This document shows, one piece after another, positions 8,988 to 35,666 of a stretch of 64,000 bases of DNA (position 1 is the stretch's first letter; the number at the start of each line of letters is the position of its first letter). The DNA comes from an uncultured Actinomycetota bacterium (GTDB taxonomy: Bacteria > Actinomycetota > UBA4738 > HRBIN12), in the NCBI GenBank assembly GCA_963746335.1, contig CAVVAK010000004.1, positions 530,825 to 594,824 on the forward strand. The letters run 5' to 3'. Below the pieces are notes generated by a model, which saw only the letters and a list, made by a program, of their open reading frames with translations, did not search any database and had not been told where the DNA came from. The translations under genes were made by a program, and so were the position numbers.

Positions 8988-9970
8988 TGGGCGAAGCCCA
9001 TCATGGAGAGCTCCGAAAGCCATGAGGACGCTTGCTGCCGCCACGCGATCTGCGCGAGAGGTGGCCGAGCGGGGATCGCGGGGAAGCGCCGCCGTGCCCG
9101 CCCTCTCGCCAGTGACCACCCGGCGCGCAGGACCTGCCTCGCCTCCCCCTGCAGGGCTGCCCGGACGAGATGTGACAGCGCCTCCCGTCGTCTCCCGGAG
9201 AGGAGACACTTGTGCGCCAGGTAGTGATGCAGGGCCCCTCGGTCGATCGTCATCCGATGCTTCTCCTCGAGGATGGCCGCCTCACGAAGGATGAGTCCGA
9301 TGTCGAGCGACGACTGTCCGGAGTGGATCCGATAGCCGACGAGGGGCTCGTCCGCGAACGCGGGGGGGCCGATGCGTGCCAGTCGGATCCACAGGTCCCA
9401 GTCCGCGAGGTTCACCAGACCGAGATCGAACACACCCGCTCGGGCGAGCGTCGCTCGCTCCACCAGCACCCCAGAACAGCCTCCTGGGATCACGCTCCAG
9501 CCCGGGAGTCGCGCCATGACCTCCCTCGGCACGGGGGGTGGAGTGCCGCCGGTGATCCGGCCGGCCTCGTCGATCTTGACGGCGCCCGCATAGACCCACG
9601 CCGAACGAGCATCTTCGGCTGCCTGGAGCTGGCGAGCCAGCTTCGTCGGCGCCCAGAGATCGTCGTCGTCCAAGAAGGCGATCCATCCACCGCGTGCTTC
9701 CTCGATACCTGTGTTGCGGGCCGCGCTGACTCCCTGGGCCTGGTCGTGGCGAAGGAGACGGACGCGAGGATCGCCCACCGAACGCACGGTCGCGGCCGTG
9801 TCGTCGGTCGATCCGTCGTCCACGACGACGATCTCCAGGTCGATGTCTCGCTGCCAGAGCGCACTTCGCAACGTCCTCATCAGCAGCTGGCTCCGATCGT
9901 GCGTCGGGATGACCACCGAGACGAGGGCGCTCGAGTCGGTCACCTCACACCCCGTCCGACCGCTCGGCAT
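8972..9970 (-). CDS. glycosyltransferase family 2 (paralogue C)
   Basis: VSVVIPTHDRSQLLMRTLRSALWQRDIDLEIVVVDDGSTDDT, FLDDDD, NLADWDLWIRLARIGPPAF. I chose ATG 9970; GTG 9943, just after the upstream stop, is an alternative. The ORF-track N-terminus (to 10279) overlaps the sulfotransferase gene. Confidence 0.8.
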   Translation of the reverse strand: MPSGRTGCEVTDSSALVSVVIPTHDRSQLLMRTLRSALWQRDIDLEIVVVDDGSTDDTAATVRSVGDPRVRLLRHDQAQGVSAARNTGIEEARGGWIAFLDDDDLWAPTKLARQLQAAEDARSAWVYAGAVKIDEAGRITGGTPPPVPREVMARLPGWSVIPGGCSGVLVERATLARAGVFDLGLVNLADWDLWIRLARIGPPAFADEPLVGYRIHSGQSSLDIGLILREAAILEEKHRMTIDRGALHHYLAHKCLLSGRRREALSHLVRAALQGEARQVLRAGWSLARGRARRRFPAIPARPPLAQIAWRQQASSWLSELSMMGFAHHGDA

Positions 9971-10943
9971 CACGATCGGTCCGCGCGAGACCCAGACGTT
10001 CCCGGAACGGCCGGGTGGTCGTTCCGATCGTCGTTCGCGCCCGATATCGCAACCTTCTGATGGCCGTGCGAGACGTCCAGGTCCCGTCTCGAGCGCGGTG
10101 GATCGCGATGTCATACGCGGTTCGGATGGGCTCGGCGATGCTGTCGTACCCGAGACGTCGAAGCTGCCGGCCGGCGATCCACTCGAATCGTTCATGCTGT
10201 GCTCGATCCCATGATCGCCACCGCTCGATGGGGTCGAAGTCCTCGCCCCGGGGAACGGGGTCCCAGTGGACGGAGTCATGATCGGGTCCGAAGTAGGTGG
10301 ATGAACCGCGAACAGGAAGTCGTTCGGCCGCCGCGAAGTCGAAATCCTTCTCGTCCAGGTCCAGGAAGCGGAGGAGGGGCGTGATTGAGCCGTGCAGATC
10401 CCGGATCAGATCCTCGTATCGAACGAGCAGGTACCGTCCCTCGTGCTCCCCGTGGTCGGTCGAGGTGAACCGGAGGATCTCGTCGGCGGCCGTGGCCCAA
10501 CTGCGAGCTGCCCGTTCGAACTCCCATCCGAACGTCGCCATGCATGACTGGGTGACCGACCGCCCGTCGCGGACGAGTATCACCAGTCGTGCGCGAGGGA
10601 AGAACGTGAAGAAGCGGTCGATGTGGCGAACGCTCGGGCTCTTCGTGAGCAGACGACGGTCCCGCTCATCCCAGAGGAACGAGAGAAGTCCATCGCCGAT
10701 CGAAGAGGAGAGCTCGTCGGCGAGATCATCCGGGAACTCGCCCCACCGGGGGTCCCATGAGGCCTCGACGGCTCCGACGAACTTCGCGAGATGGTCCGAA
10801 TGTTCCAGGAACAGGTCCTCGCGCACCGGGGGTCTCGCGGGAACGCATGCAGGATGGAGACGAAGGAGATCCCATAGATGATTCGTCCCGCTCCGCGGCA
10901 AGATACCGAGGATGAAGATGGGATCGGGAACCTTGGCGTCCAC
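9945..10943 (-). CDS. sulfotransferase family protein
   Basis: IFILGILPRSGTNHLWDLL (PSB loop) and LLTKSPS...LVILVRDGRSVTQS (3'-PB-like). The size and layout match sulfotransferase domain proteins. Confidence 0.8.
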   Translation of the reverse strand: MDAKVPDPIFILGILPRSGTNHLWDLLRLHPACVPARPPVREDLFLEHSDHLAKFVGAVEASWDPRWGEFPDDLADELSSSIGDGLLSFLWDERDRRLLTKSPSVRHIDRFFTFFPRARLVILVRDGRSVTQSCMATFGWEFERAARSWATAADEILRFTSTDHGEHEGRYLLVRYEDLIRDLHGSITPLLRFLDLDEKDFDFAAAERLPVRGSSTYFGPDHDSVHWDPVPRGEDFDPIERWRSWDRAQHERFEWIAGRQLRRLGYDSIAEPIRTAYDIAIHRARDGTWTSRTAIRRLRYRARTTIGTTTRPFRERLGLARTDRDAERSDGV

Positions 10944-12030: not shown

Positions 12031-13311
12031 CTATCCCGATCCTGTAGCGACCGCCCCGGCCGCCGCGTTCGTCTCGGTCGCTCCTGCTCCCCGGGATTTC
12101 CGCTCCAAGGCGGGCCGTTCCACGTAGCGGTACGTCAAGGCCGCGAGCGCCACACCGATGACTCCGAGGATGAAGAGGTTCGCCCAGAATCCCGATTCCC
12201 CGGCGAACGTCATGCCGTGTTGATCCGCCCACCTCTGGAGGGGCTCGTGCCAGAGGAACAGGCTGTAGGAGACCAGACCGATCGCGACCAACACCCGCGT
12301 GCGCAGGATCCGTGTGACGATCGACGTCGAGAGATCCGCCGACGGGAGAACGACGACCGCGAGAAGCAACATCGCGGCGACGCCCGTCAGGGAGTCATAG
12401 AGGACGGCGCCCTGGTACGACGGGATGGCTCCCCGATCGACGAGAAGCACCGTCACGCACACGAGTGCCGCGAGGAACGTGTAGACCGGCACCCGCCACC
12501 ACCTCGGCAGCTCGAGGACACCGTCCTCGATGCCCACCATCACGATGGCAATGATCATCCCGTAGGCGAACAGATCGCAGTAGTTCAGGAAGCTTCTGAC
12601 CAGGATCGAGTGGGCCGTTCCGCTGTCGGGAGGCAGGAGGGTGGACGTCACCCCTGCCGTGACGAGGCTCACCCCGACGAGGAGCAGGGGCGGAGCCAGA
12701 ACCGCGAGGGTCCTGCCTTTCCTCGTCGCGGTTCGGGCCGAGGCGAAGGCGGCCAGCATCCCCAGGAACGGAAGCACGAGATAGAAGACGACCTCGACGG
12801 CAAGGGACCACACGGGGGCGATACCCGTATCGCGGGAATCGGCGAAATAGTTGTGGATCAGCGCCGCGTTCCGGAGCAGGACGGTGGGTTGGTCGACCAG
12901 TCTCCCGAGCTGGAGCTCCGTCGGAGAGACACGGACCAGTGCTGCGGGGAGGATGACCGCGGTCACGATCAGGATCACCCAATAGGCGGGGAGGATCCGC
13001 AGGGCTCGGTTCCGCAGATAGGTCCGGAGGTCCTGGAGCGGGCGTTCGTTGAGCACCCGGGACACGATCGGGCGGTAGAGAAGGAATCCCGACAACACGA
13101 AGAACAGCGTCACGCCGACGCGGAGATGGGGAAGGACGAAGCGACTCAGGTAGCCCAGGTTCGCGGCACTGCCGCCTGCCGCCGTGTAGAGCCAGTTGTG
13201 ATAGACGAGCACGGCGAGCACGGCGATCGCACGGAACCCCTCCACCCCGGCGAGACGCGTGGTCGTGCCGTCCGCCCTCGTGGGCACACGCGCGGGTGAC
13301 GCGAGGCTCAT
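12031..13311 (-). CDS. acyltransferase family 3 (membrane O-acyl/acetyltransferase)
   Basis: GVEGFRAIAVLAVLVYH at the N-terminus, followed by about 10 TM segments, is typical of Acyl_transf_3. ATGA overlap with the upstream gene at 13308-13311. Confidence 0.85.
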   Translation of the reverse strand: MSLASPARVPTRADGTTTRLAGVEGFRAIAVLAVLVYHNWLYTAAGGSAANLGYLSRFVLPHLRVGVTLFFVLSGFLLYRPIVSRVLNERPLQDLRTYLRNRALRILPAYWVILIVTAVILPAALVRVSPTELQLGRLVDQPTVLLRNAALIHNYFADSRDTGIAPVWSLAVEVVFYLVLPFLGMLAAFASARTATRKGRTLAVLAPPLLLVGVSLVTAGVTSTLLPPDSGTAHSILVRSFLNYCDLFAYGMIIAIVMVGIEDGVLELPRWWRVPVYTFLAALVCVTVLLVDRGAIPSYQGAVLYDSLTGVAAMLLLAVVVLPSADLSTSIVTRILRTRVLVAIGLVSYSLFLWHEPLQRWADQHGMTFAGESGFWANLFILGVIGVALAALTYRYVERPALERKSRGAGATETNAAAGAVATGSG

Positions 13312-14414
13312 GGCGCGTCGACGTTGGACGGGTCGGCGAGCCGAGGCGAAGCCACTCCGGGCTGCCGGTCGAAGAAGTCGCCGCTCTCGTCAGGCTCCGT
13401 TCGCGGGAACGACGGCCAGCCTTCGTCATCGGTGGATGGCGCGTCGCCCGCGGCAGCGCTCACCGGAGGCAGCGCGAGATACGCGAGGCGCCTGACCTCC
13501 CGCCGATTGCGGCACACGGAGTCGAGGATCAAGCCTGCCGTGAGACAGATGAACGCGACGATCTGGATCGAGGCGCTCAGCACCGCGGTCGGCAATCGAA
13601 GCACCAACCCGGTCGCGAGGAACTCCTCCACCACGACCGCGCCGAGCGCCACCGCGATGGTCGTGAGCGCAAGGGCGATCGCCGTGAAGAAGCGCAGAGG
13701 CCGCATCTCCTTGAACAGCAGGACCGCGGCGAGAGTGATCCGGATCCCGTCGCGGAGCGTTCGGAGCTTGCGCGCGGAATCCACGTGGCGCGCTCGGTAC
13801 GAGGTGGTCACCTCCGCGTACGGCAACCCGATCTCCGCGGTGTGCGCCGTGAGCTCCGTCTCGATCTCGAACCCGGTGAATCGGACCGGGAAGGTCTTCA
13901 CGAATCTGCGCGACAGCACGCGATATCCGGAGAAGACGTCCGTGAACCGTGTGCCGAACAACATCTTGAGGATCCTGTTGAACAGCCGGTTGCCCACGAC
14001 GTGACCACGTGGGAACGCGCTCCCTTCGGGACGACGGCAGCCGACGACCATGTCCAGGTTCTGATCGACGAGCAATCGCACCATGGCCGGGGAGGCGTCG
14101 GGGTCATACGTGCCGTCACCATCGGCCATCACGTAGACGTCAGCCTCGATGTCGGCGAACATGCGGCAGACGACACTGCCCTTCCCTCGCCGTGGCTCGC
14201 TCCGAACGAGGGCGCCCGCAGCCCTGGCCCGTTCGGCCGTGGCATCGGTCGAGGCGTTGTCGTACACGAAGATCCGGGCGCTCGGAAGCGCCGAACGGAA
14301 CCCGGCGACGACCTCGGCGATGGTGCGTTCCTCGTCTTGACAGGGCAGGAGCACCGCGACGCGCAGCTCGCCGCTCGGGCGGCCGTTCGGACGAGGCGTG
14401 GGGGCGTCAGTCAC
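13308..14414 (-). CDS. polyprenyl-phosphate glycosyltransferase (GtrB/ArnC/DPM1-like GT2 with C-terminal TM helices)
   Basis: VAVLLPCQDEERTIAEVV...VYDNASTDATAE...RGKGSVV...MADGDGTYD, then two C-terminal TM helices (FFTAIALALTTIAVALGAVVV, AVLSASIQIVAFICLTAGLIL). GTG 14414 overlaps the upstream stop by 8 nt. Confidence 0.85.
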   Translation of the reverse strand: MTDAPTPRPNGRPSGELRVAVLLPCQDEERTIAEVVAGFRSALPSARIFVYDNASTDATAERARAAGALVRSEPRRGKGSVVCRMFADIEADVYVMADGDGTYDPDASPAMVRLLVDQNLDMVVGCRRPEGSAFPRGHVVGNRLFNRILKMLFGTRFTDVFSGYRVLSRRFVKTFPVRFTGFEIETELTAHTAEIGLPYAEVTTSYRARHVDSARKLRTLRDGIRITLAAVLLFKEMRPLRFFTAIALALTTIAVALGAVVVEEFLATGLVLRLPTAVLSASIQIVAFICLTAGLILDSVCRNRREVRRLAYLALPPVSAAAGDAPSTDDEGWPSFPRTEPDESGDFFDRQPGVASPRLADPSNVDAP

Positions 14415-16506
14415 GGCGTGCCTCCAAGAGCAGGTTCTTCCCGATCCACCGACCGGTGATGCGATCGAGCGCTCGGCTGGACGGGAAGAGCCATTTATCA
14501 TATCGCGCAACGGACTTCGGGTTGAGTTCACCGTCCCTGGCCAGGAGCCGATACGCGAGGGCAGCGAAGAATCCGACACTATCGACGTACCGGCAACTGA
14601 CGACCCGGAAGCCTGCGCCGCGAACACGATCGCGCAAGAGCCGCAACCGGTAGCGGCGATGATGACCGACCCGGCGGTCCATCGCCGAGAACAGGATCTC
14701 GAAGGCCGGCACGTACAGGATCAGTCGGCCACCCGCATCCGTCACGGCGAAGAGCTGCCGGAGCGCTTCCTCGTCGTCCTCGATGTGCTCGAGGACGTTC
14801 AACGAGTAGACCGAGGCGAACGACGCTCGTCCGAGATCCCGGACTCCGGCGTCGACCGTGAACCCTTCTCGCTCCAGAGACCGGCGGAGCCGCGGGTCCG
14901 GCTCGATGCAACGGACGTCGACGCCTCGCTCGCGCAACCGGCGGGCGTGTGTCCCTGTTCCGGCCCCGAAATCGAGCACGGGACGCGAGGCATCGACGCG
15001 CGTCAGGACGGCGGAGGTCAGGAACTCGTTGTACGAACGAGCGGCTTCCATCGCCTCGAGGTTGGGCACCCCCTGATACGCGGCGGCCGAAGCGTCGAGC
15101 CTTTGCTCGACGGGCCGCTCGGATCGGACGATCTCGCGGAACGAGAGGCGAACCCGACGCCCGGCCACGACCGCAGCCAGCAACAGCAGCGTGGTCCCGA
15201 CGGCGCCCGCGATCAAGCCCTGGCGTCCGAGCGCCCTCATGGCCCCGAGCTGCCACAGGCTGAGCGTCCGCAGACGGTTGAGACCGTCTCGACGATCCTC
15301 GTAGGGATGGGCGATCGAGTAGCGCACGGCACTCGGAAGCAGTGCGAACTGGCGTGTCACCGAGGGACTCGACAGAGGCTGGGTATCGAGGAAGTGCGTC
15401 TCGGGGGGAGGGGGCGACACCTCGAGCAGCTGAGATTCAGGGGAAAGGAAGAAGGCCGGCAGGGAGACCAGGGCTCCGGCCACCAGGATGAGGACGGTGA
15501 TCATCCGACGCGATCCCTTCGACGCCCACGGACCGATCGCCGCGAGCGCCGGGATGAGTCCGGGCAGGAGCAGACGGGGGCCCCAGCACCACCCGCCGTG
15601 CCAGGAGAACCACGTGGCCGCCACGACGAACGTGATCGCGAGGTTCGCGGTGAGGAGCACGGACGTCCAGCGATCCCGCTGCCACAGGAGACGGAGCGCG
15701 AACGGCAGCAGGACGATCACTGGAGCGAACAGCAAGACGCTCTTCGTCGGCTCGAACAACAGGCCACGGGCTCCGGTGAGGAACGGGGTGGTGAAGCCGA
15801 CGTCCTGATACCCGAACCGCAAGGGATCGCCGAAGCGAACGGCGTTGTAGGCGAACATGGCCAGCACACCTGGGACGAGCCCTGCGGTGACCCGCCACGA
15901 TGCCGGCACACCGTCGCGCCGCCACGCGACGAAGAGGAATACCGGTACGAGAAGCAGCGTCTGGGGCCGGGTCAGCACGGCGAGACCCATCGCGAGACCC
16001 GCGGTGGCCGGCTTCCGTGCGAGCCAACGCTCGACGGCGACCACGAGACAGAGCACGACGAGCGGTTCTGAGAAGAACTCCTTGCTGTACGGCAGCATGA
16101 ACGTCCCGACCACCGCCCCTATCCCGACCAGGAGAGCCGCCCAGACGTCCGCTCCCATCCTTCTCCCGAGCCCGAAGAGCGCCACCACCAACGCCGCCGC
16201 GACGATCGGCATGGTGGAAGAAACCACCCCGGAGGAGATGAAGCCTCCGTGGCCGATGAGGCTCGTGATCGGTTTCGACAGGAGGTACGGGATGACGCCG
16301 ACGAGGGACAATCCCAATCCGTATCTGCCGTACTCCAGCCCGTCCGGTCCGGTCAAGGTGTTCCACGCATCGGGGATCGCGAACGTGTGCTCGTCGACCA
16401 TCGACTGCGTCACCGCGTACATGGTCCCGCCGTCGTATCCCGTCACCGTGCCCTGCTGGAACAGCAAGAAGACCGACGCCACGAACAGGAACAGCCAGAG
16501 GGCCAT
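14407..16506 (-). CDS. fusion protein: N-terminal polytopic GT-C-like (PMT_2/ArnT-like) glycosyltransferase plus C-terminal class I SAM-dependent methyltransferase
   Basis: The N-terminal ~470 aa have many TM segments (MALWLFLFVASVFLLF..., GRYGLGLSLVGVIPYLL). The C-terminal ~220 aa carry methyltransferase motif I VLDFGAGTGTHARRL, then SLNVLEHIEDDEEAL and GGRLILYVP. The start was chosen at ATG 16506. Confidence 0.75.
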   Translation of the reverse strand: MALWLFLFVASVFLLFQQGTVTGYDGGTMYAVTQSMVDEHTFAIPDAWNTLTGPDGLEYGRYGLGLSLVGVIPYLLSKPITSLIGHGGFISSGVVSSTMPIVAAALVVALFGLGRRMGADVWAALLVGIGAVVGTFMLPYSKEFFSEPLVVLCLVVAVERWLARKPATAGLAMGLAVLTRPQTLLLVPVFLFVAWRRDGVPASWRVTAGLVPGVLAMFAYNAVRFGDPLRFGYQDVGFTTPFLTGARGLLFEPTKSVLLFAPVIVLLPFALRLLWQRDRWTSVLLTANLAITFVVAATWFSWHGGWCWGPRLLLPGLIPALAAIGPWASKGSRRMITVLILVAGALVSLPAFFLSPESQLLEVSPPPPETHFLDTQPLSSPSVTRQFALLPSAVRYSIAHPYEDRRDGLNRLRTLSLWQLGAMRALGRQGLIAGAVGTTLLLLAAVVAGRRVRLSFREIVRSERPVEQRLDASAAAYQGVPNLEAMEAARSYNEFLTSAVLTRVDASRPVLDFGAGTGTHARRLRERGVDVRCIEPDPRLRRSLEREGFTVDAGVRDLGRASFASVYSLNVLEHIEDDEEALRQLFAVTDAGGRLILYVPAFEILFSAMDRRVGHHRRYRLRLLRDRVRGAGFRVVSCRYVDSVGFFAALAYRLLARDGELNPKSVARYDKWLFPSSRALDRITGRWIGKNLLLEARRD

Positions 16507-16569
16507 GCGCCGCTCGGAACCCTCGGGCGGTGGGACGTCTCGCACGCCACGACGATAATCGAGCCCGCG

Positions 16570-18048
16570 ATGGCCCCGATAGCCCAACACTCGGATGAGC
16601 GTCGAAGGAAGGGTGGTCCGGTTCGGGGTCGATGGGTTCCGCTCATCGGCATCGGGAGCGGGATGCTGTATCTCGCTCTGGCGGTCGCACAAGATGCGCT
16701 TCATCGCCCGCCTGTGGATGCCGAGCCGACGCTGGCTCCCTTCGTCGTCTACACGGCGGTCACCATCGGCCTGTTCGCGCTCTTCATCACGCTGCTCGTT
16801 CTGTGCGCGAGGTACGGACCGTTCACCCGCCGCCAGCGCGTGCTCGCGATCTCGTTCCCGATCGTGTTCAACGTGGCGTTCCTGTTCACTCCCCCGACCC
16901 TGTCCATCGACCTCCTCTCCTACATCTCACACGGCTACATCGAGACGACGATGGGCGGGAACCCGCTCGTGGAGCCGAGCTCGTCGGTAGCCGGCACGCC
17001 CCTCGGGACCGAGCTCCTGCGCTACGGCTGGCGGCCGGTTCACCCGGCATCGCCGTACGGGCCCGCGTGGACACGTGTCGAAGCCTCCGCCGCTCGTTCG
17101 TTCGATGATGCGCGGAGCCAGATGGTCGTGCTGAAGCTCGTCGTCGTGGCGGCGAGCCTCGGGACGGCTCTGCTCATCTGGTCGATCCTCGGCCGTGTGA
17201 GACCCGAGCTTCGCCTCCTCGGGACACTCGCGTACCTCTGGAACCCGATGATCGTCATGGAGCTCGCGGGCGACGGTCACAACGACGCCGTGATGGTGTT
17301 CTTCGTGCTGCTGGGGCTCTTCCTGACGATCGAGCGACGAGTCGTCGGAGGGATCGTCGCCACGTCGCTCGGGGCCCTGACGAAGTACGTGCCGATCCTG
17401 TTCTTGCCACTGCAGATCGCATGGATGTGGCGCACACGCCCGAGCACGAGTCGCTTCGCGGGCCGGGTGCTGGCCGGAGCCGCCGTGGCGGCGCTGCTGA
17501 CCGTGGGTCTGTACGCCGGCTATTGGGAGGGGTCCGATACGTGGACGGGCGTGCGGCTCGCAGGACGACCGGGCAGTACGGGATCGACCCAAACGATGAT
17601 CATCGAGCTCCTGTCACGGATCGTGTCGCCGGCATCGGTCGAGTCGTTCGTTCCCATCCTCGCCGTCCTCGGGCTGATCGCGTACGTGGGCTACCAGGCC
17701 CGGACCATCGCGGACGGAAGGGACCTGCTCACCGGATGCGCGGCCCTCGCCCTCGTCTACCTGCTCTTCATCTCGCCCAGCTACTGGCCCTGGTATGCCG
17801 TTCTGCCGGTCGCGCTCCTTGCTCTCGTGCCGACCGGCCCTTCGTTGCTCGTTCTTCTCGCCGTCTCGCTCGGCTCCCGTCTGGCCGCCCCGTTGGACCT
17901 GCTGTTCGTCCACGAACTCCTGAGTCGACGGGTGTTCTTCGCTCTCACGTGGATCCTCGGCCTCGGCATCCCCATGCTGGCATGGGGAGTGTCGAGGGTT
18001 CGGCCTCGCGGCCTCTCCTTCACTCCGGGGTCGTCACCGCGTCCTTGA
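16570..18048 (+). CDS. polytopic membrane protein, GT-C/DUF2029-like (polyprenyl-phosphate-sugar-dependent glycosyltransferase candidate)
   Basis: About 12 TM segments. LAYLWNPMIVMELAGDGHNDAVMVFFVLLGL and LTKYVPILFLPL resemble the loop motifs of DUF2029/mannosyltransferase-type GT-C proteins. The start is uncertain (ATG 16570 or 16663). Confidence 0.6.
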   Translation: MAPIAQHSDERRRKGGPVRGRWVPLIGIGSGMLYLALAVAQDALHRPPVDAEPTLAPFVVYTAVTIGLFALFITLLVLCARYGPFTRRQRVLAISFPIVFNVAFLFTPPTLSIDLLSYISHGYIETTMGGNPLVEPSSSVAGTPLGTELLRYGWRPVHPASPYGPAWTRVEASAARSFDDARSQMVVLKLVVVAASLGTALLIWSILGRVRPELRLLGTLAYLWNPMIVMELAGDGHNDAVMVFFVLLGLFLTIERRVVGGIVATSLGALTKYVPILFLPLQIAWMWRTRPSTSRFAGRVLAGAAVAALLTVGLYAGYWEGSDTWTGVRLAGRPGSTGSTQTMIIELLSRIVSPASVESFVPILAVLGLIAYVGYQARTIADGRDLLTGCAALALVYLLFISPSYWPWYAVLPVALLALVPTGPSLLVLLAVSLGSRLAAPLDLLFVHELLSRRVFFALTWILGLGIPMLAWGVSRVRPRGLSFTPGSSPRP

Positions 18049-19528
18049 GCGCGACCAGGATGACGTTCTTGCCGGCGGGCGGCTCACGAAGGACCCGTTG
18101 GATCAGGCGACTCAGCGGCACGATCAGACGATCGTAGCCCCACATGGTCGATCCCGAGATCTGGGTGCTGTGCAGCCATCGGTAGACGACCAGGTACGGG
18201 AGAACCCCCAAGAGATCGAAGTAGCGCACCGTCACGACCCGCAGTCCGGCTCCCTCTGCGATCCGACGAAGATGGTGCAGGGAGTAGCGGCGGTAGTGGC
18301 CGGCCTTGTGGTCCAGCCCGCTGTAGAGGCTCTCCAGGCCGGGTCCGAACACGAGGAGGGCGCCGCCGGGCCGCAGCGCGTCGGCTGCCAGCTGGAGCTC
18401 CCGCTCATCGTCGGCGATGTGCTCGAGCACGTTCACATAGAGCACGGCGTCGAAGGCACCCGCGAACCGCGTGCCGGAATCGGCGAGCGTTCCCTTCTCC
18501 GCCGTCACTCGCTCGGTCATCGCGGCGTACGCATCGAGACTGGCGAACAGGTTCTCGGCGGGCTCGAGCGAGACGATGGATGCGTCGGGGTGACGATCGA
18601 CGAGCTTGCGCGTGATCGTTCCCGTGCCGGCTCCGACCTCCAGGATGCGGCCGCGCACGTATGGCTCGAACTCCTCCAAGACCCAGTCGAAGAAGTACTT
18701 GCTCGCGGCGAGGCATTCGAGGTCGTCCTCGGCTTCGAAGTGGCCCACATCGAAGACTCGCCCGGAGGGCGCGAGCCGGCGCTCCCGTACGCGCTGCATC
18801 TCCTTCCGGAGTGCCAAGAGGTGAGAAGCGAACTCGCCCACGTCTCGGAGCGTGAGTCCGCCACCGCCGGCCCGTGGTTCGCGGTAGATGATCGGCGCCT
18901 CGGAGACCCGGTAGCCTTCCGCGATCGCCTTCGCGACGAACGTCGTGTGGACGCTGTACGGGTTGAGGGGCGTCCCGCTCAACTCGAGTTCGCGGATGAG
19001 CTCGGTCCTCGTGACGCGGAAGCTCGTGGTGGCGTCTCCGATCCTGGGGCTGCCCGTCACCCACCGGAACAACAGGTTGGCCGTACGCCCGAGGAACCAC
19101 CGGGAGAAACTCAGGCCCGGCGTGCCGCTTCCGCTGGTCCACCTCGAACCGATGACGACGTGGGCCTTGCGTGCGATCAGATGATCGATCAGGCCGGGGA
19201 TCTGCGTGGGATCGTGCCGCCCGTTCGCGTCCATCGTCACGACCAGGTCGGCTCTGCCGGCCTCCGATGTTCGGCGAAGCCCGTCGAGGAAGGCCTCGCC
19301 AGAGCCGGAGACCGGCGCCGGAACGGATGTGAGCGGGAGGCCCAGCTCTGCCGCGATCTTGCCGGCCGGCACCGCGTGCTCCCCACCGTCCAGGAGGAGG
19401 ACGTCCAGATCGATGTCGCGTGCACGCAACGCGTATGCGGCCACCGCCAGATCTCGGACGAGGGCTTCGATCGCGTCCTCCACACCGTAGGCGGGCAAGA
19501 CAACGGTGACGGCCTGAGGTGTCTTCAT
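18020..19528 (-). CDS. fusion protein: N-terminal GT2 (DPM1/polyprenyl-phosphate glycosyltransferase-like) plus C-terminal class I SAM-dependent methyltransferase
   Basis: VTVVLPAYGVEDAIEALV...LLLDGGE...TMDANGRHDP in the N-terminal half. ILEVGAGTGTITRKLV, VNVLEHIADDEREL and GGALLVFGP in the C-terminal half. The start was chosen at ATG 19528 (MKTPQAVTVV). Its 3' end overlaps the convergent gene by 29 nt. Confidence 0.8.
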   Translation of the reverse strand: MKTPQAVTVVLPAYGVEDAIEALVRDLAVAAYALRARDIDLDVLLLDGGEHAVPAGKIAAELGLPLTSVPAPVSGSGEAFLDGLRRTSEAGRADLVVTMDANGRHDPTQIPGLIDHLIARKAHVVIGSRWTSGSGTPGLSFSRWFLGRTANLLFRWVTGSPRIGDATTSFRVTRTELIRELELSGTPLNPYSVHTTFVAKAIAEGYRVSEAPIIYREPRAGGGGLTLRDVGEFASHLLALRKEMQRVRERRLAPSGRVFDVGHFEAEDDLECLAASKYFFDWVLEEFEPYVRGRILEVGAGTGTITRKLVDRHPDASIVSLEPAENLFASLDAYAAMTERVTAEKGTLADSGTRFAGAFDAVLYVNVLEHIADDERELQLAADALRPGGALLVFGPGLESLYSGLDHKAGHYRRYSLHHLRRIAEGAGLRVVTVRYFDLLGVLPYLVVYRWLHSTQISGSTMWGYDRLIVPLSRLIQRVLREPPAGKNVILVALKDAVTTPE

Positions 19529-19649: not shown

Positions 19650-20772
19650 GTGCGCATCGCCCAGGTGGTACCCCGCGGCGAGCAGCCATGGTCGGGTGTG
19701 CTGACGGTCATCGTGCACCTCGCGTCGGCACTCGCCCGACGAGGCCATCAGGTGGATGTCTGGCAGTTGCATCGATGGTCGCCCGACGTGTACCGGGAGC
19801 AGCAGCGGCGGCTGGAGGCGGCCGGGGTCGCCCAGGTTCCACTGCTGCCGACGAGGCGGCTCGGCCCCGCAGCGGCGTCGTTGGCGAAGGAGCGCCAGAT
19901 CGACGTGGTCCACCTCCACGGCGCCTTCAATCGGTCCAACACCGCGGTTTCGCGGGCGCTTCGAGGCCCGTACGTGTTCTCCCCGCACAGCGGGTACGAC
20001 CCCGTGTCACTGACCCGCGGACGCGGCAGGAAGCTCGTCTACCGCGTGCTGTTCGAGCGAACGATGCTGATGCGCGCGGCGCTCCGGGTCGCCCTGACGA
20101 ACCAGGAGCTCGGACAGCTGCGCGCCGTGGGCGTGACCGGACCCATCGAGGTGATCCCCAACGGCGTCGAGGCGGCCCCCGACGATCTCGACCGCGACGA
20201 CGTTCCGTCACGAGCTCGGACTGTCGGCAGATCCCTTGCTGGCGGTGTTCGTCGGTCGTCTCGACGTCCACCGCAAGGGACTCGACGTGCTCGTCCGTGC
20301 GATCGCCGCGGCCCCGCCCTGGCATCTGGCCCTCATCGGTCCCCGGTTCCGAGATGTGGATCGCCTCGAGAGGATGATCGCGGACCTGGACACCGGCGAT
20401 CGGGTCCACCTCGTGGGAGAACGCCATGGTCGAAGCTTGCAGGAGAGCGTGGCCGCGGGGGACGTATTCATGTTGTTGTCGCGCTGGGAAGGGCTCCCCA
20501 TGGCACTGCTGGAGGCCCTCAGCCTCGGGAAGCCGGCGATCGTCAGTACGGTCGTCGAGCCATCGGTCGGCGTCGAAGCGGCCGGTGCGGGCTGGGCCGC
20601 GGACGAAGGTGAGGTTGCGCCGCTGCTGCGCGATCTCCAGGATCGAGGGAGAGGCGAACTGGTCCGCCGCGGCGCGGCAGCGCTCGGGCTGTCGAAGAGA
20701 TACGACTGGGATCTCGTTGCGGAACGGTACGAATCCGCGTATGAACGAGCACTCGGATCGGATAGCGGGTGA
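19650..20772 (+). pseudogene. GT4 glycosyltransferase interrupted by one +1 frame break near 20202-20206 (true pseudogene or sequence error)
   Basis: N-terminal half, from GTG 19650: VRIAQVVPRGEQPWSGVLTVIVHLASALARRGHQVDVW. At ...LDRDDV the sense continues one base downstream as FRHELGLSADPLLAVFVGRLDVHRKGLDVL...LLSRWEGLPMALLEALSLGKPAIVS, the classic GT4 C-terminal half. Confidence 0.75.
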
Positions 20773-22348
20773 CGTGGTGAACGAACCGGTGCTCGGCGAG
20801 ACGCCAGACGCCGGTCACGACCCGAGGCAGGAACACGCTTCCGCCGTTGTGTCCCGCTACCACCCGTGTCCGAGATGGCTGGCACTCACGTTGATCGTCA
20901 CCGCCGCTCTCGTCTTCGTCGCCTGGCTCTTCCTGGCCGCAGCGCACATCGACGACCGGTACCAGCTCGATCATGTGTCCGGTGCCCGGATGGCCCTGGC
21001 GCAGTCCTTCGATCGCGGCACGCTCTATCCCGAGCTGTACGACGGTCGGACCTACGGGGGCACCAGGTTCATGCCGCTCCCGATCGTGCTCCACGGTCTG
21101 ACGGCCCGAATGACGGGCGAATACCTCGTCGCAGGCAAACTCCTCGGTTACGCGGCGACGCTCGGTCTCCTTGCGACCATGATGATCCTCCTGCGGCGCG
21201 GCCGGTGCCCGCTCCCCTATGCCCTGATCCTCGCCGCCCTCGTCCTGACGACGTCGACGGGATCCGACGGCTCGATGAACATGCGCGCCGACGTCCTGCC
21301 GCTCGTCCTCCAGGTACTGGCTGTCTGGATCGTCGCGAGCACGCCCCGTCCCGCCGCCACGATGGGCGCGGCCGCTCTGGCTGCCCTTGCCCTCGTTTCG
21401 AAGTTGAGTGCCGTGTGGGCGCCGGTCGCGATCGTCATCTGGCTGCTTCGGCGCGATCGGAAGCGACTGGCGGTGTTCTCGTCCGCGTACGTCGCGATCT
21501 CTGGAGCGCTCCTGCTCCTGTTCATCGGCCTCAGTGACGGACGGTTGGTCGAGAACGTCTTCGGTCTGTCCACATCGGGCATCACGGGCCTCCGATCGAT
21601 CCTGCTAGCGCCGTACCGATCGATGCACCTGCTGGTCGGGGAGGCGACGGCCGCCTGGGCCCTGATCCCGCTCGCCGGTCTCGCCGCGTGGGTCGCGATC
21701 AAGGACCGGCGGGGGTCCATCTATCAGGTGAGCTTGCTCTGTGCGACGGCGGTCCTTCTGATCGTGCTCACCGACGTCGGGACCGGTGGGAACCAGCTGA
21801 TCGACATCGTGGTACTGATCGCGCTCGTGGTCGGGGAGTTCGCGGCTCGGGTGCGGGCCGGCGTGCCGCGGATCGGACCGGCGGCGCCGGTGCTGGGGAC
21901 GGCCATCGGGCTCGTGTTGCTGTGGGCGACCTTCAGCGGGTTCATCGTCACGCTCGCCCCGGAGTTGGAGGCGATGGTCAGCGCCGAGGCGTCGTTCACG
22001 AAGACACCCTTGTCGGGCCTCGCCACGTCCCACACGTCGGTGCTCTCCGAGGATCCCTACGTGCCGATCTCACTCGGTCAGGTGCCCGTCGTGCGCGATC
22101 CGTTCATGCTGCCCAGGTTGGCCCAGCGGCAGCCCGACGCCGTCCCCGACCTCATCGATCGGATCGAGGACCAGGAGTTCGACCTCGTCATCCTGGTCGA
22201 ACCTCTCGAGCCCCTCGATCGCACCTGGTGGAGCGAGCTCGATCTCGGCACTCCGGTCGTGCAGGCGATCTCGCGCGCGTACTCGTACTCGGGGAGGGTC
22301 CAGGGCTATCACGTGTACGAGCCGCGTGAGGAGGGTTCCCTGCCGTGA
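20741..22348 (+). CDS. polytopic membrane protein (GT-C-like candidate)
   Basis: More than 10 TM segments after WLALTLIVTAALVFVAWLFLAAA. An early loop, GARMALAQSFDRGTLYPELYDGRTYGGTRFMPLP, is reminiscent of ArnT/PMT-type first periplasmic loops. Start at ATG 20741, or GTG 20774 just after the GT4 stop. Confidence 0.6.
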   Translation: MNEHSDRIAGDVVNEPVLGETPDAGHDPRQEHASAVVSRYHPCPRWLALTLIVTAALVFVAWLFLAAAHIDDRYQLDHVSGARMALAQSFDRGTLYPELYDGRTYGGTRFMPLPIVLHGLTARMTGEYLVAGKLLGYAATLGLLATMMILLRRGRCPLPYALILAALVLTTSTGSDGSMNMRADVLPLVLQVLAVWIVASTPRPAATMGAAALAALALVSKLSAVWAPVAIVIWLLRRDRKRLAVFSSAYVAISGALLLLFIGLSDGRLVENVFGLSTSGITGLRSILLAPYRSMHLLVGEATAAWALIPLAGLAAWVAIKDRRGSIYQVSLLCATAVLLIVLTDVGTGGNQLIDIVVLIALVVGEFAARVRAGVPRIGPAAPVLGTAIGLVLLWATFSGFIVTLAPELEAMVSAEASFTKTPLSGLATSHTSVLSEDPYVPISLGQVPVVRDPFMLPRLAQRQPDAVPDLIDRIEDQEFDLVILVEPLEPLDRTWWSELDLGTPVVQAISRAYSYSGRVQGYHVYEPREEGSLP

Positions 22349-23631
22349 CGACACGGAACGTCGAGCGTGCCGGGAGTGTTCGGAGCACGCTCGAGCGGAG
22401 GCTCCTCACCATCCTGACGTACCGCCCGGACATCGACGGGCGACTCCTCGTCGTCGCCGTGCTCGGGGTGTACTTCCTCGTGGTTGCCGTTCCGCGGTTC
22501 CTGTGGAACGTCGACGTCTGGCCCCGGCTGGGTGTCCCTTCCGGGCCTTCGCTGTTCTTCGACACGAGGAACCTCACGGCCGCCCTGGAATGTCGGCGAC
22601 TCGGCTTCGATCCATTGGTCCAGAACCCCTGCGACCCCTGGGGGAGGCCGCTCAACTACCCTCGCGTGTGGCTCGCTCTCCGCTGGTTGGGACTGAACCA
22701 GTCCCACACCGTCGCCCTCGCCCTCCTGTTCATCATCGTGTTCCTCGGGTCGATCCTCCTCCTGACGGGACGGGTCAGCCTCGGCAGAGGGAGTCTGGTG
22801 GCTCTGGCCGTCTGTTCCCCGTCCGTCATGTTCGCGATCGAGCGGGCGAACGTGGACATCGTCGTGTTCACCCTGATGGTTCTCGCGGTCCTCGCCTGGC
22901 GGGTCCGCAGCCGCTGGGCGGAGGTCGCAAGTCCGTTCGTCGTCCTCGTCGCCGCGACCGCGAAGATCTACCCGGTCTTCGCGCTCCCCGCCTACCTCTT
23001 CCTGCGCCGGCGCAGCGCCGCGATCGTCGCCGTCGTGTGTGCTGCTCTGTTCGCCCTCTACGCGTTGGTGACGATCGGAGACATCCAGGCGGTGGCGGCG
23101 GTCGCACCACAGGGCGAGCTCCACGCGTTCGGGGCCAGGATCCTTCCGGCTGCCATCTACCACCGGTTCATCCCCGACCGGTGGCAGGGTGGAGCGATCA
23201 CGAAGCAGCTCCTCGTCATCGTCCCCCTGCTCGCGGCCGCCCCACTCGTGTGGTTCCCGGGACGTCGGCGACGCCCTGCGGCCGACCGGGGAGCCGACAC
23301 CCCCACCCGCCTCGCGTTCTTCGCGGGATCGATGATCTTCTTGGGGACCTTCGCGATCGGCAACAACTTCGACTACCGGCTCGTGTTCCTGCTTCTCACA
23401 CTTCCTCAGCTCTTCGATTGGGTCACCGCGGAGCCACGCGATCCTCGTGCGTGGCTGGCCGGCATCGCGACGATCATCGTCGTGTCCCTTCTGTGGATCG
23501 GAGCCCTCTCGGAGCCACTCCTGCTGATGGACGAGTTGGTGACGTGGGCGGCGGTCGGCGTGTTGGTGGCACTCCTCGCAGCGTCCGTACCCTCGGTCCG
23601 CACGATCCTGGCCACGATGCGGCCAGACTGA
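22345..23631 (+). CDS. polytopic membrane protein (DUF2029/GT-C-like candidate)
   Basis: The GTG start forms a GTGA overlap with the upstream stop. About 10 TM segments; AATAKIYPVFALPAYLF resembles the K-(Y/P)-P loop of DUF2029 proteins. Confidence 0.6.
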   Translation: MTTRNVERAGSVRSTLERRLLTILTYRPDIDGRLLVVAVLGVYFLVVAVPRFLWNVDVWPRLGVPSGPSLFFDTRNLTAALECRRLGFDPLVQNPCDPWGRPLNYPRVWLALRWLGLNQSHTVALALLFIIVFLGSILLLTGRVSLGRGSLVALAVCSPSVMFAIERANVDIVVFTLMVLAVLAWRVRSRWAEVASPFVVLVAATAKIYPVFALPAYLFLRRRSAAIVAVVCAALFALYALVTIGDIQAVAAVAPQGELHAFGARILPAAIYHRFIPDRWQGGAITKQLLVIVPLLAAAPLVWFPGRRRRPAADRGADTPTRLAFFAGSMIFLGTFAIGNNFDYRLVFLLLTLPQLFDWVTAEPRDPRAWLAGIATIIVVSLLWIGALSEPLLLMDELVTWAAVGVLVALLAASVPSVRTILATMRPD

Positions 23632-23702
23632 TCCGGCTCGGGGGATCGCCGGGACGCGTATCCTGACCTCCTCGCACGATCGCGGAATCGGGAGCATCGG
23701 AC

Positions 23703-24635
23703 GTGTCCTTCGAGAAGGTGGATCTTCCTCGGAACATCGACGAGCCTGCTCGCGAGGCGTTGCCGGCAAGGGCGTCGGCCGGCGCGATCGTCTCGACGGC
23801 GCGCCCGCGACAGTGGGCGAAGAACGTCCTGGTGTTCGGGGCGCCTGCCACGGGCGGCGTCCTCACCGACCCCGCCGCGCTCGCCTCCACCATCGCCGCC
23901 TTCATCGCCTTCTGCCTCGTCGCGAGCGGCGTGTATTTCTTCAACGACATCGCCGATGCGTCCACGGACCGCCTGCATCCGACGAAGCGGTTCCGCCCGG
24001 TCGCGGCGGGCCAGATGTCCCGCTCGCTGGCGGCCTCGCTCGGTGCCCTGCTGATCGCCGTCGGCTTGGCGGTCGGGGCGTGGGGTGGCGGCGCGGCCCT
24101 GCTCGGCGTCCTGGCGGGCTACGTCGGACTCTCCGTCGCCTACATGCTCGTGCTCCGCGACATCGCCCTGATCGATCTCGCGGCGATCTCTGGTGGATTC
24201 CTGCTCCGCGCGGTCGCGGGCGGTGTCGCCACCGACGTGCCGCTCTCGATGTGGTTCTTGATGGTCGCCGGCTTCGGCTCACTCTTCCTCGCCGCTGGCA
24301 AGCGCCACGCGGAGTACGTGCAGCTCGGCGACGCGCGCGCCGACCATCGCAAGAGCTTGCGGGAGTACTCGGAGCCGTACCTCCGCTACGTCCAGTACGC
24401 CTCCTCGACGGTGGTCATGGCCGCGTACGCGCTGTGGGCATTCGAAGGCGTCGCCGGCGGGAGCCTCTGGTCGGAGCTCTCGATCATCCCGTTCGTGCTC
24501 GGCATCTTCCGCTACGCACTCCTCCTCGAGCACGGCCGAGGGGCTGCTCCGGAAGAGGTCGTCCTCAGCGACGTCCCGCTGTTGGCGCTCGGGGCGGCGT
24601 GGATCGTGCTGGTCGCCACCGGGGTCTACGCGTGA
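23703..24635 (+). CDS. decaprenyl-phosphate 5-phosphoribosyltransferase (UbiA prenyltransferase superfamily, Rv3806c-type)
   Basis: [15 protein letters not shown] and [26 protein letters not shown] match the NDxxDxxxD / HPTKRxRP signature of DPPR synthases. About 8 TM segments. Confidence 0.8.
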
Positions 24636-24681
24636 ACGAGCGTCACGGTCCCTCGTCGGCCGTCACCGCAGGGTAGTCACG

Positions 24682-25617
24682 ATGTCACGGGCGCTCGTCA
24701 CGGGCGGAGCGGGTTTCCTCGGATCCCACCTCTGCGATCGCTTGATCGCCGAGGGCTGGGACGTGGTGTGCGTCGACTCCTTGCTCACGGGACGCGAAGA
24801 CAACATGGGACAGCTTCTCGGACACGAACGGTTCGAGTACATGGCCTACGACGTGACGGAACCGTTCGCGTTCGACGGCGAGCTCGACCGCGTGCTCCAT
24901 CTGGCCTCACCGGCGTCTCCCGTGGACTATCTGCGGTGGCCGATCGAGACCCTGCGGGTGGGCGCCCTCGGAACGCTCCATGCACTGGAGCTCGCCCGGG
25001 CGAAGGAGGCGACCTTCTTCCTCGCCTCGACATCCGAGACGTACGGCGATCCGCTGGTCCACCCGCAACCCGAGACCTACTGGGGCAACGTCAACCCGGT
25101 CGGTCCGCGCAGCGTGTACGACGAGGCCAAGCGATACGCCGAGGCCGCGACCATGGCCTACCACCGCGCACATGGGCTTCCCGTGAGCATCGCGAGGATC
25201 TTCAATACCTACGGCCCGCGGATGCGACGCAAGGATGGTCGGGCCGTGCCCACGTTCATCCAGCAGGCGATGGCCGGGGAGCCGTTGACGGTCCACGGCG
25301 ACGGGACACAGACGCGCTCGCTCTGTTTCGTCGACGACCTCATCGAAGGGCTCTATCGCCTCATCGAGTCCGAGCAGGTCGGTCCCGTGAACGTCGGCAA
25401 CCCCAACGAGATCACCGTCATGCAACTCGCTGAAGCGATCCGGGACGCCGCAGGCAGCTCGTCGCCGATCGTGAACGTGGAGCGGCCCGTCGACGATCCC
25501 GAGATGAGGCGCCCCGACATCTCGTTGGCTCGAGAACTGCTGGGATGGGAACCGGCCGTTCCGCTCGCCGACGGCCTCGCCCGCACGATCGGCTGGGCGA
25601 AGACGGCATGGGCCTGA
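24682..25617 (+). CDS. uxs: UDP-glucuronate decarboxylase (UDP-xylose synthase), SDR family
   Basis: [18 protein letters not shown] (GxxGxxG), [11 protein letters not shown] (YxxxK), NTYGPRM and [14 protein letters not shown] are the UXS-type pattern. 311 aa. Confidence 0.85.
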
Positions 25618-26258
25618 CGTCCAGGCGTGCACCGATGAACGCAGGCAAGGCAGCTCGGAAGGGTGCGTTCGTGCTGATCGTCGGGCCCGACGGCACGGGC
25701 AAATCGACGCTCGCCCAGGGACTGGTGGATGCGACGAGACACGAGTTCCCGCATGTGATCCACATGCATTGGCGCCCCGGCTTGCTGCCTCGACCCGGCG
25801 GTCTCGTCGGGATCGAAGCCGGCGATCCGACCGATCCGCACGCGCGAGAGCCACACGGATCGTTCCTCTCTCTGCTGTTGCTCGCGTACCACTGGCTCGA
25901 CTTCTTCCTCGGGACGTGGCTGCGGATCGTGCCGGCCAGATCACGGGGAGGCTTGGTCGTGATGGAGCGCGGGTGGTTGGACATCGCGGTCGACCCGCGG
26001 AGATATCACCTCGCGCTCCCTCGGAAGCTCGTGGAGCGGCTCGGACGCCTCCTCCCCGCACCGGACCTCGTGGTCGTTCTCTACGCGGAGCCCGAAGCTC
26101 TAACCCGACGGAAGGCAGAGCTTCCCACCCAGGAGCTCTCCAGGCAGATGGCGCGCTGGCGTCAGATCACGTTCCCAGCCCGCACGACCAGGTTGTTCCT
26201 GGATGCCTCCGAGAGTGCGGATCGACTCCTCGAGCAGGTGAGTCGCGCGGTGCTGTAG
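25608..26258 (+). CDS. P-loop NTPase, thymidylate-kinase-like fold; function unknown
   Basis: Walker [20 protein letters not shown]. No other motif recognised. Start at ATG 25608 (10-nt overlap with uxs) or ATG 25635. Confidence 0.55.
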
Positions 26259-26320
26259 TCTCCAACCTTCCTCGGCTACCGCCTTGAGCCACTCCCCCCG
26301 ACGTCGATACGTGGAGGCGT

Positions 26321-27860: not shown

Positions 27861-28010
27861 CGCGGCCTGTCCTCGTGTACTCCGCTGGGCTTCCCCGGAT
27901 GGGCCGCTGCGTAGTCGAGTCCAGGCCCGCCTATCGGGATAGTTACGCATCAAGAATCAACTCTCCTCGGCCGATGAAAGGGGGACAGCCAGAAGGGGAG
28001 AGAAGCGGTC

Positions 28011-33044: not shown

Positions 33045-33084
33045 TTCTTGAGGGGTCACCCGAAGCGCAATGCGACTCGGAACC

Positions 33085-35552: not shown

Positions 35553-35666
35553 TACCGGTTTCCTGCCCAGCCAGTTCCCAAGCAGACTGAATCACCAGGA
35601 CCCACCTCAGCCTCACGCTCGTCACGAGACATCCCTGAGCGACCTATCCCTTCTGATGGAGCGTCT

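Follow-up and report, generated by a model that had tools for sequence, protein, structure and literature searches.

How methyl-sugars could reach glycans that are decorated outside the cytoplasmic membrane is the question raised by a 64-kb stretch of DNA (contig CAVVAK010000004.1, hereafter the window) from an uncultured Actinomycetota bacterium, in which two genes join a glycosyltransferase to a methyltransferase dependent on S-adenosylmethionine (SAM). Bacterial surface glycans often contain O-methyl sugars, yet SAM is not available outside that membrane; to our knowledge, the route by which methyl-sugars arrive at glycans decorated after export has been described by nobody. One of the two genes, GT-C-MT, encodes a polytopic GT-C glycosyltransferase followed by a methyltransferase domain (MT1), and the other one, GT2-MT, encodes a GT2 glycosyltransferase followed by a second methyltransferase domain (MT2). 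The analysis confirmed that both fusions are genuine and conserved single open reading frames (ORFs) with intact SAM-binding motifs. As for their function, the reading favoured here, with a probability of about 0.5, is that the polyprenyl-phosphate sugar donor receives a methyl group at the cytoplasmic side of the membrane, through the methyltransferase, before this donor is flipped and used by a GT-C enzyme. Related loci and proteins are designated by L and P numbers, respectively.

Two conserved fusion proteins

The three ORFs that the initial annotation had placed here (the two fusions and a membrane protein gene between them) are all present and uninterrupted. Its description of the N-terminal part of GT-C-MT as PMT_2/ArnT-like holds for the fold and for transitive homology, on which the PMT_2 label rests, but not for a direct Pfam match: PMT_2 (PF13231) was not matched by this part at E<=0.01, and the domain has no direct sequence membership in the ArnT family. 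The match to the NCBIfam model of the LA_3751/3752 putative GT-C (2.8e-10, 39.6 bits) is below the cutoff of 200, and PF13231 is carried by the distant GT-C homologues P0115-P0120 (28-31% identity, E~1e-27). The AlphaFold2 (AF2) model of the whole protein, with a mean confidence (pLDDT) of 89.9, matched ArnT (5f15/5ezm) in Foldseek with an E-value of 2.6e-6 and a probability of 1.0, the TM-scores being merely 0.36/0.44 since the query included the methyltransferase domain. A sequence search of the PDB with whole GT-C-MT gave a match to the methyltransferase only. The features of the GT-C_A fold were found in this protein: a polytopic domain, a structural match to a solved GT-C and a conserved acidic residue (D25) in the first extracytoplasmic loop, where D25 and G26 are invariant just after the first transmembrane helix (TM1) in the alignment of GT-C homologues. 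A flexible linker (residues 467-476) connects the GT-C domain to MT1, whose Methyltransf_23 match (49.0 bits against a cutoff of 27, E 7.5e-13) covers residues 501-637 and includes VLDFGAGTGTHARRL. By fold, MT1 matches AtmM, RebM and TleD (Foldseek).

GT2-MT combines a Glycos_transf_2 domain (27.7 bits, cutoff 23.3) with a Methyltransf_23 domain (55.8 bits, cutoff 27, E 6e-15), so that both C-termini are class I SAM methyltransferases, as had been proposed. The DPM1-like nature attributed to the GT2 domain is borne out by its match to the Pyrococcus dolichol-phosphate mannose (DPM) synthase 5mlz, both by profile (E 1.2e-12) and by fold (E 3.4e-14); the fold also matches ArnC 9asc (E 4e-11), and the AF2 model has a pLDDT of 82.9. 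No transmembrane helix, and thus no C-terminal anchor, was found in GT2-MT by hydropathy or in the AF2 model; the methyltransferase takes the place of the transmembrane hairpin. The DXD motif of the fused GT2 is non-canonical (D100-A-N102-G-R104-H-D106, compared with DAD-LQH in DPM synthase). Among 55 family sequences, residue 102 is N (44 sequences), T (10) or D (one), so that 54 of them have the motif with N or T. Arg104, which stands where DPM synthase has a metal-binding Gln, is invariant, and the motif is common to the whole actinobacterial clade. Judging from these residues, the fused GT2 of the clade to which the window belongs may be metal-independent or non-catalytic.

MT1 and MT2 are the only two members of their family in the window. 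They share 35% identity over 204 aa (E 2e-33), reaching through the C-terminal tail, and the motifs NVLEHI.DDE and GG.L are present in both, in agreement with the likeness noticed at the outset; by sequence they are paralogues. Both models show the alternating beta/alpha arrangement of a Rossmann-like fold, with a Foldseek probability of 1.0 to many class I methyltransferases.

The full GT-C-MT architecture in one frame recurs in 33 protein clusters (90% level) at 53-94% identity, and that of GT2-MT in at least 120 clusters, all of them independent and from different samples and assemblers; GT2-MT is full-length at >=60% identity in all of the best 120 of 665 matches. The nearest genome, a metagenome-assembled genome (MAG) of an uncultured Actinomycetota bacterium from the Microflora Danica set (L001; 94% DNA identity, 96% for the GT2-MT protein), is collinear over 22 kb and carries both fusions intact. 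In the representative library at 50% identity just one cluster (P0021) covers the whole of GT-C-MT, so this fusion is confined to a narrow clade. A sibling assembly (ENA ERZ25039588 contig_31991, L055), 99.94% identical, has an extra C between positions 14838 and 14839 of the window (~4669 in L055), which shifts the frame of MT1 after residue 556 and leaves a 642-aa protein (P0003); this insertion is either a long-read indel error or a strain-level decay of MT1.

The order that preceded the GT-C-MT fusion is retained in a Nitriliruptorales MAG (L063) and in another MAG (L064), in which a divergent GT87 gene is followed by separate genes for a GT-C (502 aa), a methyltransferase (249-253 aa) and a GtrB-like GT2, the GT-C and methyltransferase genes overlapping by 17 bp. 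This unfused order is the ancestral precursor; in L057 all the parts are separate. An artefact of assembly or annotation, by which a lost stop or an indel had merged neighbouring genes in one or both fusions, could appeal to these separate overlapping genes of sister lineages and to the 1-bp indel that falls within the GT-C-MT gene itself in the sibling assembly. It is nevertheless very improbable, because the fused frames recur in the clusters mentioned above and both of them in the nearest MAG, and because the sibling indel damages the methyltransferase domain and does not split it from the GT-C. The claim that each fusion is a single ORF and not the product of a lost stop is thus upheld.

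True fusions of GT2 and methyltransferase also occur at a distance, and those counted are L004, L021, L024 and L025 only. L024, L025 and L021 (Lentisphaerae, Proteobacteria and Acidimicrobiia MAGs) have a canonical DAD and a strong GT2 score, and polytopic membrane proteins adjoin the fusions in L024 and L025. Other apparent fusions from tblastn (L006, L007, L009, L010, L012, L014, L029 and L036, from Pyrinomonadaceae and other MAGs) were rejected as not being single ORFs, since frame analysis revealed adjacent genes or broken frames. In a 62%-identical Actinomycetota MAG (L002, 10001-10766), the alignment of the GT2-MT homologue changes frame within its GT2 domain, through a frameshift or an error of assembly in that record.

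Predicted location of the methyltransferase and partners of its family

The initial annotation had seen a topology question in the attachment of a SAM-dependent domain to an enzyme whose active site faces outwards. The topology of GT-C-MT was derived from the AF2 secondary structure and a tally of loop charges over 66 homologues (numbering of the 699-aa sequence); Kyte-Doolittle windows were dropped for the GT-C because their transmembrane calls overlapped and were ambiguous. TM1 comprises residues 2-15 and is followed by a long first outer loop (17-86) with juxtamembrane helices. The short loops rich in K and R are all on one side (RR115-116, ARK163-165, RRD196-198, RDR277-279 and KGSRR330-334), and on the opposite side there are highly conserved loops poor in K and R (134-146, 226-261, 299-310 and 354-427). 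TM12 (428-463) leads into an Arg-rich stretch, then into the linker, which is disordered, and then into the methyltransferase. The model thus predicts 12 passes with both termini inside, the weakest part of the helix count being residues 65-116 (one long TM2 plus a juxtamembrane helix, or three passes). In agreement with this prediction, a K/R-rich N-terminal extension is frequent in GT-C homologues.

Twelve helices would put both ends of the protein inside, so MT1 is predicted to be cytoplasmic, which is where a SAM enzyme must be. The supposed paradox dissolves, since standalone GT-C orthologues stop just past the same last helix and P0040 joins a GtrB-like GT2, a cytoplasmic enzyme that uses nucleotide sugars, at the same point; a cytoplasmic C-terminal domain on a GT-C poses no topological problem. 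According to the model, the two active sites of GT-C-MT are on opposite faces of the membrane. The proposal that the GT-C fusion methylates the acceptor does not survive this placement: MT1, after the twelfth helix, would lie on the cytoplasmic face, opposite the catalytic loop of the GT-C, and so could not reach an extracytoplasmic acceptor.

A search with MT1 by itself gave 1513 matches at E<=1e-10 in several phyla. Most MT1-like proteins are standalone, among them its nearest relatives (~230 aa, 50-70% identity), and the databases give the members generic names such as 'SAM-dependent methyltransferase' or 'methyltransferase domain-containing protein'. Standalone and fused members share the invariant residues G514/G516/G518 (GxGxG), E573, H574, D578, D610, H615, R617, R618 and Y619, and the family keeps a three-helix insertion with a hydrophobic helix (DSxGFFAALxYR) ahead of the last strand. 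No match to MT1 was found by tblastn in phage and plasmid collections.

These proteins usually occur in the same genetic context. In all five standalone members sampled on long contigs, the methyltransferase gene is directly downstream of a GT2 of 240-335 aa (240 aa in L059 and 305-335 aa in the other four), and its start overlaps the stop of the upstream gene in three of the five. Two of them have the order GT2-GtrA-MT, one of which continues with a 613-aa protein matching the STT3-type GT-C family (1.7e-17), and in the remaining contigs the flanking polytopic proteins have 7-12 hydrophobic segments. GT2 and methyltransferase are likewise paired in L028, L026, L030 and L033; the operon of L028, an Alphaproteobacteria MAG, consists of a PMT_2-like GT-C, a second polytopic protein, a GtrB-like GT2 and a methyltransferase that is 43% identical to MT1. 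Fusions to GtrA (PF04138 plus methyltransferase) were found in P0442, P0454, P0482 and P0488, and P0285 is a fusion of a GtrB-like GT2 and a methyltransferase.

In the window itself, a GtrB/AglJ-like gene lies directly downstream of GT-C-MT and its GTG start overlaps the stop of the fusion by 8 bp. The gene is also called in L055. Its product matches the AglJ model TIGR04182 with 3e-58, below cutoff, has two C-terminal hydrophobic (transmembrane) segments and is 51% identical to the GT2 that adjoins the standalone methyltransferase of L028. Two parts of a Gtr-type set, the GtrB-like synthase and the GT-C, are encoded in the window; GtrA occurs in related modules. Because of the family-wide adjacency to GT2, GtrA and GT-C genes and the repeated fusions, the methyltransferase family behaves, as far as sequence can tell, as an accessory of Gtr/Arn-type lipid-carrier glycosylation, fused somewhere to each of the three canonical components. 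The physical coupling of sugar transfer and methylation that had been postulated accordingly gains weight: the repeated independent fusions and the conserved gene adjacency strongly suggest that both activities are functionally coupled.

As a separate observation, genes for a Wzm/Wzt-type ATP-binding cassette (ABC) exporter with a Wzt_C domain (L063, 1-1646) adjoin the unfused GT87, GT-C, methyltransferase and GT2 module of the Nitriliruptorales MAG, which hints at ABC-dependent export of the polymer decorated there.

Proposed methylation of the lipid-linked donor, and other readings

On the proposed reading, the locus would use polyprenyl-phosphate-linked sugar donors to build or decorate a polymer outside the membrane, and MT1 and MT2 would be dedicated donor-tailoring methyltransferases, each joined to a different Gtr/Arn-type component. 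The partner of MT1 would be the translationally coupled GtrB/AglJ-like synthase, and that of MT2 the fused DPM-synthase-like GT2 without transmembrane helices. The polyprenyl-phosphate sugar (Pren-P-sugar) would be made by the GT2 at the inner face, the adjacent methyltransferase would O-methylate the lipid-linked sugar with cytoplasmic SAM, the methylated donor would be flipped, and a GT-C (the fused ArnT-like one or a neighbouring GT87) would move the methyl-sugar onto the glycan outside. The role of the fusions would be co-localisation or channelling at the membrane. Established in this picture are the identities of the domains, the fact that the fusions are conserved and the family-wide linkage, with the methyltransferase predicted to be inside; the substrate (Pren-P-sugar), the O-methylation chemistry and the order of the steps are what we infer.

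Several observations favour this reading. Because the conserved partner is the GtrB-like synthase directly downstream, the donor, and not the acceptor, is the likelier substrate also for the GT-C fusion. For the GT2 fusion, the donor had been proposed from the beginning and stands as the best reading of the substrate, its O-methylation being presumed. The best fold matches of the methyltransferases include the sugar O-methyltransferases AtmM and RebM. H615/R617/R618/Y619 and E573/H574/D578 are candidates for phosphate binding and catalysis; the Arg-Arg pair could be a phosphate clamp and the hydrophobic helix a membrane or prenyl contact. Tailoring of a lipid-linked monosaccharide before flipping has precedent in the deformylation by ArnD and in DprE1/E2. 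The undecaprenyl-phosphate (Und-P)-ribose epimerase is another case of tailoring of a lipid-linked donor (PMC11127046).

Other findings weigh against it. The fused GT2 is without the second Asp of its DXD motif (N or T at 102, R at 104), which makes its synthase activity uncertain. L056 (P0040) fuses the GT-C straight to the GtrB-like GT2 without MT1, and MT1 is frameshifted in the 99.94%-identical sibling assembly; MT1 is therefore dispensable, or the sibling assembly is wrong. No GtrA-type flippase was found in the 64-kb window with an ad hoc hidden Markov model, phmmer or tblastn. By fold, phosphoethanolamine, prenyl-diphosphate and small-molecule methyltransferases score similarly to sugar methyltransferases, and the class I fold does not point to a particular substrate. 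At least seven GT2 genes besides the GtrB-like one belong to the cluster, and the methyltransferases could instead act on what these make in the cytoplasm; in the literature, neither a characterised member of the family nor biochemical evidence for one was found.

We consider the main competing explanation unlikely: the methyltransferases would act, before export, on a cytoplasmic oligo- or polysaccharide linked to undecaprenyl diphosphate (Und-PP) that is to become the acceptor, possibly as a cap in the manner of WbdD or WsaE, and the fusion would serve as a membrane anchor. Terminal methylation sets the chain length in ABC-dependent O-antigen pathways, and the many cytoplasmic-type GT2s of the cluster, together with its two sulfotransferases, deacetylase and acyltransferase, would fit such a polymer, as would the exporter genes beside the related module in L063; in the window no Wzm/Wzt was found by tblastn or phmmer. 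It would leave unexplained, however, why the fusions are specifically to GtrA, GtrB-like GT2 and GT-C proteins and why the methyltransferase comes right after the GtrB-like GT2 in minimal modules of 3-4 genes that contain no other genes for polymer synthesis. Moreover, no WbdD-type kinase or extended coiled-coil ruler was found in the window fusions by Pfam and NCBIfam scans or in the AF2 secondary structure.

Still less probable is that the substrate of the methyltransferase is not a sugar but polyprenyl phosphate, the head group of a phospholipid or a partner protein, or that the domain has a SAM-sensing or regulatory role by which the attached glycosyltransferase is tuned. The fold matches to phosphoethanolamine N-methyltransferases, UbiG and a farnesyl diphosphate (FPP) methyltransferase point in that direction, and the non-canonical DXD of the fused GT2 fits binding over catalysis. 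Nevertheless, the catalytic-looking residues E573, H574, D610, H615, R617, R618 and Y619 are kept in standalone and fused members alike, and the genetic link is to the sugar-loading step and not to carrier synthesis.

Returning to donor methylation, a more general version of it, somewhat less than an even chance in our estimation, is that the methyltransferase is a 'fourth component' of lipid-carrier glycosylation that would convert Pren-P-sugar into Pren-P-(O-methyl)sugar inside, so that GT-Cs install methylated sugars outside. If this is true, GT-C-MT would be a two-faced enzyme by which the same lipid-linked sugar is methylated inside and then transferred outside, and the methylated donor could cap the chains of polymerising GT-Cs, e.g. 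the flanking MptA/B-like proteins. A methyltransferase in a Gtr/Arn-type donor pathway would then be a simple and general route for methyl-sugars to exported glycans, and methylation would join the known deformylation and epimerisation as a way of tailoring lipid-linked donors. The minimal GT2-(GtrA)-MT-GT-C operons would offer directly testable systems and possible parts for glycoengineering. The fusions themselves are ordinary operon fusions; the family-wide link is the part that gives a testable clue to the way in which extracytoplasmic glycans acquire methyl-sugars.

The surrounding glycan cluster and comparison with known systems

The window has a G+C content of ~67%, and a large envelope-glycan cluster occupies its positions 2800-25600 (Table 1). 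Besides the GtrB-like gene, the Pfam scan of the ORFs detected in this cluster the further GT2 genes already mentioned; the two sulfotransferases, polysaccharide deacetylase, acyltransferase, two GT87 genes, a 9-segment membrane protein and a UbiA-family gene with an epimerase gene complete its content. From the Sulfotransfer_3 and deacetylase genes, the glycan of the cluster is probably sulfated and N-deacetylated too.

Table 1. Features of the window and their positions (domains are listed under the gene that encodes them)
Feature	Position	Strand	Basis or remark
705-aa protein with GDSL lipase, DUF4082, fibronectin-III and Ig-like domains	627-2744		edge of the glycan cluster
Polysaccharide deacetylase	6125-7069		inside the glycan cluster
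Sulfotransfer_3 gene	8064-8987		inside the glycan cluster
Sulfotransfer_3 gene	9945-10943		inside the glycan cluster
Acyl_transf_3 gene	12031-13311		flanked by the GtrB-like gene and the next GT2
GtrB/AglJ-like polyprenyl-phosphate glycosyltransferase, 368 aa	13308..14414	-	Pfam GT2, AglJ model
GT-C-MT fusion gene	14407..16506	-	single uninterrupted ORF, 699 aa + stop
ArnT-fold GT-C domain, residues 1-463	15118..16506	-	~12 transmembrane helices; Foldseek, helix map
MT1, class I SAM methyltransferase domain, residues ~477-699	14410..15078	-	Methyltransf_23
GT87 (ex-DUF2029) / MptA-B-like GT-C membrane glycosyltransferase	16570..18048	+	PF09594 27.1 bits
GT2-MT fusion gene	18020..19528	-	single uninterrupted ORF, 502 aa + stop
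DPM-synthase-fold GT2 domain, residues 1-252	18773..19528	-	5mlz by fold and profile
MT2, paralogue of MT1 (by sequence), residues ~272-502	18023..18715	-	Methyltransf_23
Polytopic membrane protein, family unassigned, conserved	20426..22348	+	640-aa ORF, 9 hydrophobic segments
Second GT87-like GT-C	22345..23631	+	PF09594 E 1.3e-7
UbiA-family prenyl-phosphate phosphoribosyltransferase-like gene and an epimerase of the SDR (short-chain dehydrogenase/reductase) type	23703..25617	+	PF01040 5e-18, PF01370 2e-48
Beta-helix/NosD-like protein	26321-27571		first gene of the low-G+C stretch

The gene between the two fusions, described in the initial annotation as a DUF2029-like membrane protein, is indeed a GT87, with a PF09594 score that is marginal against the gathering cutoff of 25; the precomputed Pfam assignment of an identical protein is PF26314 (MptA_B_family). 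Its start could be at 16663, according to the gene call in L055. It is divergent from GT-C-MT, and its position is kept in L001, L056, L057, L063 and L064. GT87 and GT2-MT are convergent and their 3' ends share 29 bp (18020-18048).

The Acyl_transf_3 gene is shared by the window and the sibling assembly; because it is missing from the 94%-identical MAG L001, it is a recent gain or loss. The 9-segment protein has no Pfam match and a best NCBIfam match of merely 0.002. Its gene is syntenic in L001, L002 and L003, and in L056 its place is taken by a Pfam-negative gene of 451 aa. At the beginning of the ORF, ~140 codons (20426-20840) are rich in Arg, Cys, Ser and Trp and not protein-like; given this and the 451-aa counterpart, its real start is probably ~140 codons downstream. 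The G+C content falls to 62-64% at 26000-42000, compared with 66-72% on either side, and given this dip the segment may be an acquired island.

Among the closest parallels to the proposed pathway are the GtrA/GtrB/GtrC systems (also CsbB/GtcA/YfhO and GacI/GacJ/GacL), in which a GT2 loads polyprenyl phosphate inside, a small flippase follows and a polytopic GT-C acts outside. As in them, the window has a GtrB-like GT2 and several GT-Cs, and related loci have GT2-GtrA-MT-(GT-C) operons; what sets the module apart is one more dedicated enzyme, the SAM methyltransferase, which is either free-standing or joined to one or another of the three components. The literature searched contained no Gtr-type system of this kind and no account of methyltransferases in three-component or GT-C donor pathways.

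The ArnC/ArnD/ArnT pathway of lipid A aminoarabinose shares with the window, by fold match, an ArnC-like GT2 and an ArnT-fold GT-C. In that pathway the lipid-linked sugar is deformylated by ArnD while still on the cytoplasmic side, and flipping and GT-C transfer come afterwards, whereas the tailoring proposed here is methylation; besides, ArnT has 13 transmembrane helices and a periplasmic C-terminal domain, and the GT-C of the window would have ~12 helices and a cytoplasmic C-terminal methyltransferase. In the mycobacterial conversion of decaprenylphosphoryl ribose (DPR) to arabinose (DPA), and in the polyprenyl-phosphoribose three-component systems (GT136), an auxiliary cytoplasmic enzyme likewise diversifies the lipid-linked donor before the GT-C. 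In the GT136 systems this enzyme is an epimerase that acts on the lipid-linked donor (PMC11127046). It is thus not a methyltransferase, and the GT-C families differ; the UbiA, SDR epimerase and GT87 genes (22345-25617) are a shared feature. By analogy, this row of genes looks like a polyprenyl-phospho-pentofuranose donor branch, which would be the third lipid-linked branch of the locus.

With Ppm1 and MptA/MptB of mycobacterial and corynebacterial lipomannan synthesis, the window has in common a DPM-synthase-like GT2 beside GT87/MptA-B GT-Cs in an actinobacterium. The fused or separate partner of Ppm1 is an Lnt-like membrane domain and not a methyltransferase; furthermore, the DXD is degenerate in the window and the host is an uncultured, distantly related actinobacterium.

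Other systems couple methylation to glycan synthesis. WbdD (Escherichia coli O8/O9a) and WsaE (Geobacillus), the latter being a genuine fusion of a methyltransferase and a glycosyltransferase, resemble the fusions of the window in the physical link between a SAM methyltransferase and the synthesis of a glycan; they act, however, on the growing cytoplasmic Und-PP-linked polymer, whose chains they terminate, and have no link to GtrA, GtrB or GT-C. AglP of Haloferax volcanii is a SAM methyltransferase that acts on a dolichol-phosphate-bound glycan before flipping, and the GT2s of the window resemble AglJ. The target of AglP is a hexuronic acid within a lipid-linked oligosaccharide destined for N-glycosylation, and its likeness to the methyltransferases described here is without a demonstrated specific sequence relationship. 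From the known pathways of donor tailoring, the system of the window differs in its tailoring chemistry and in the physical fusions.

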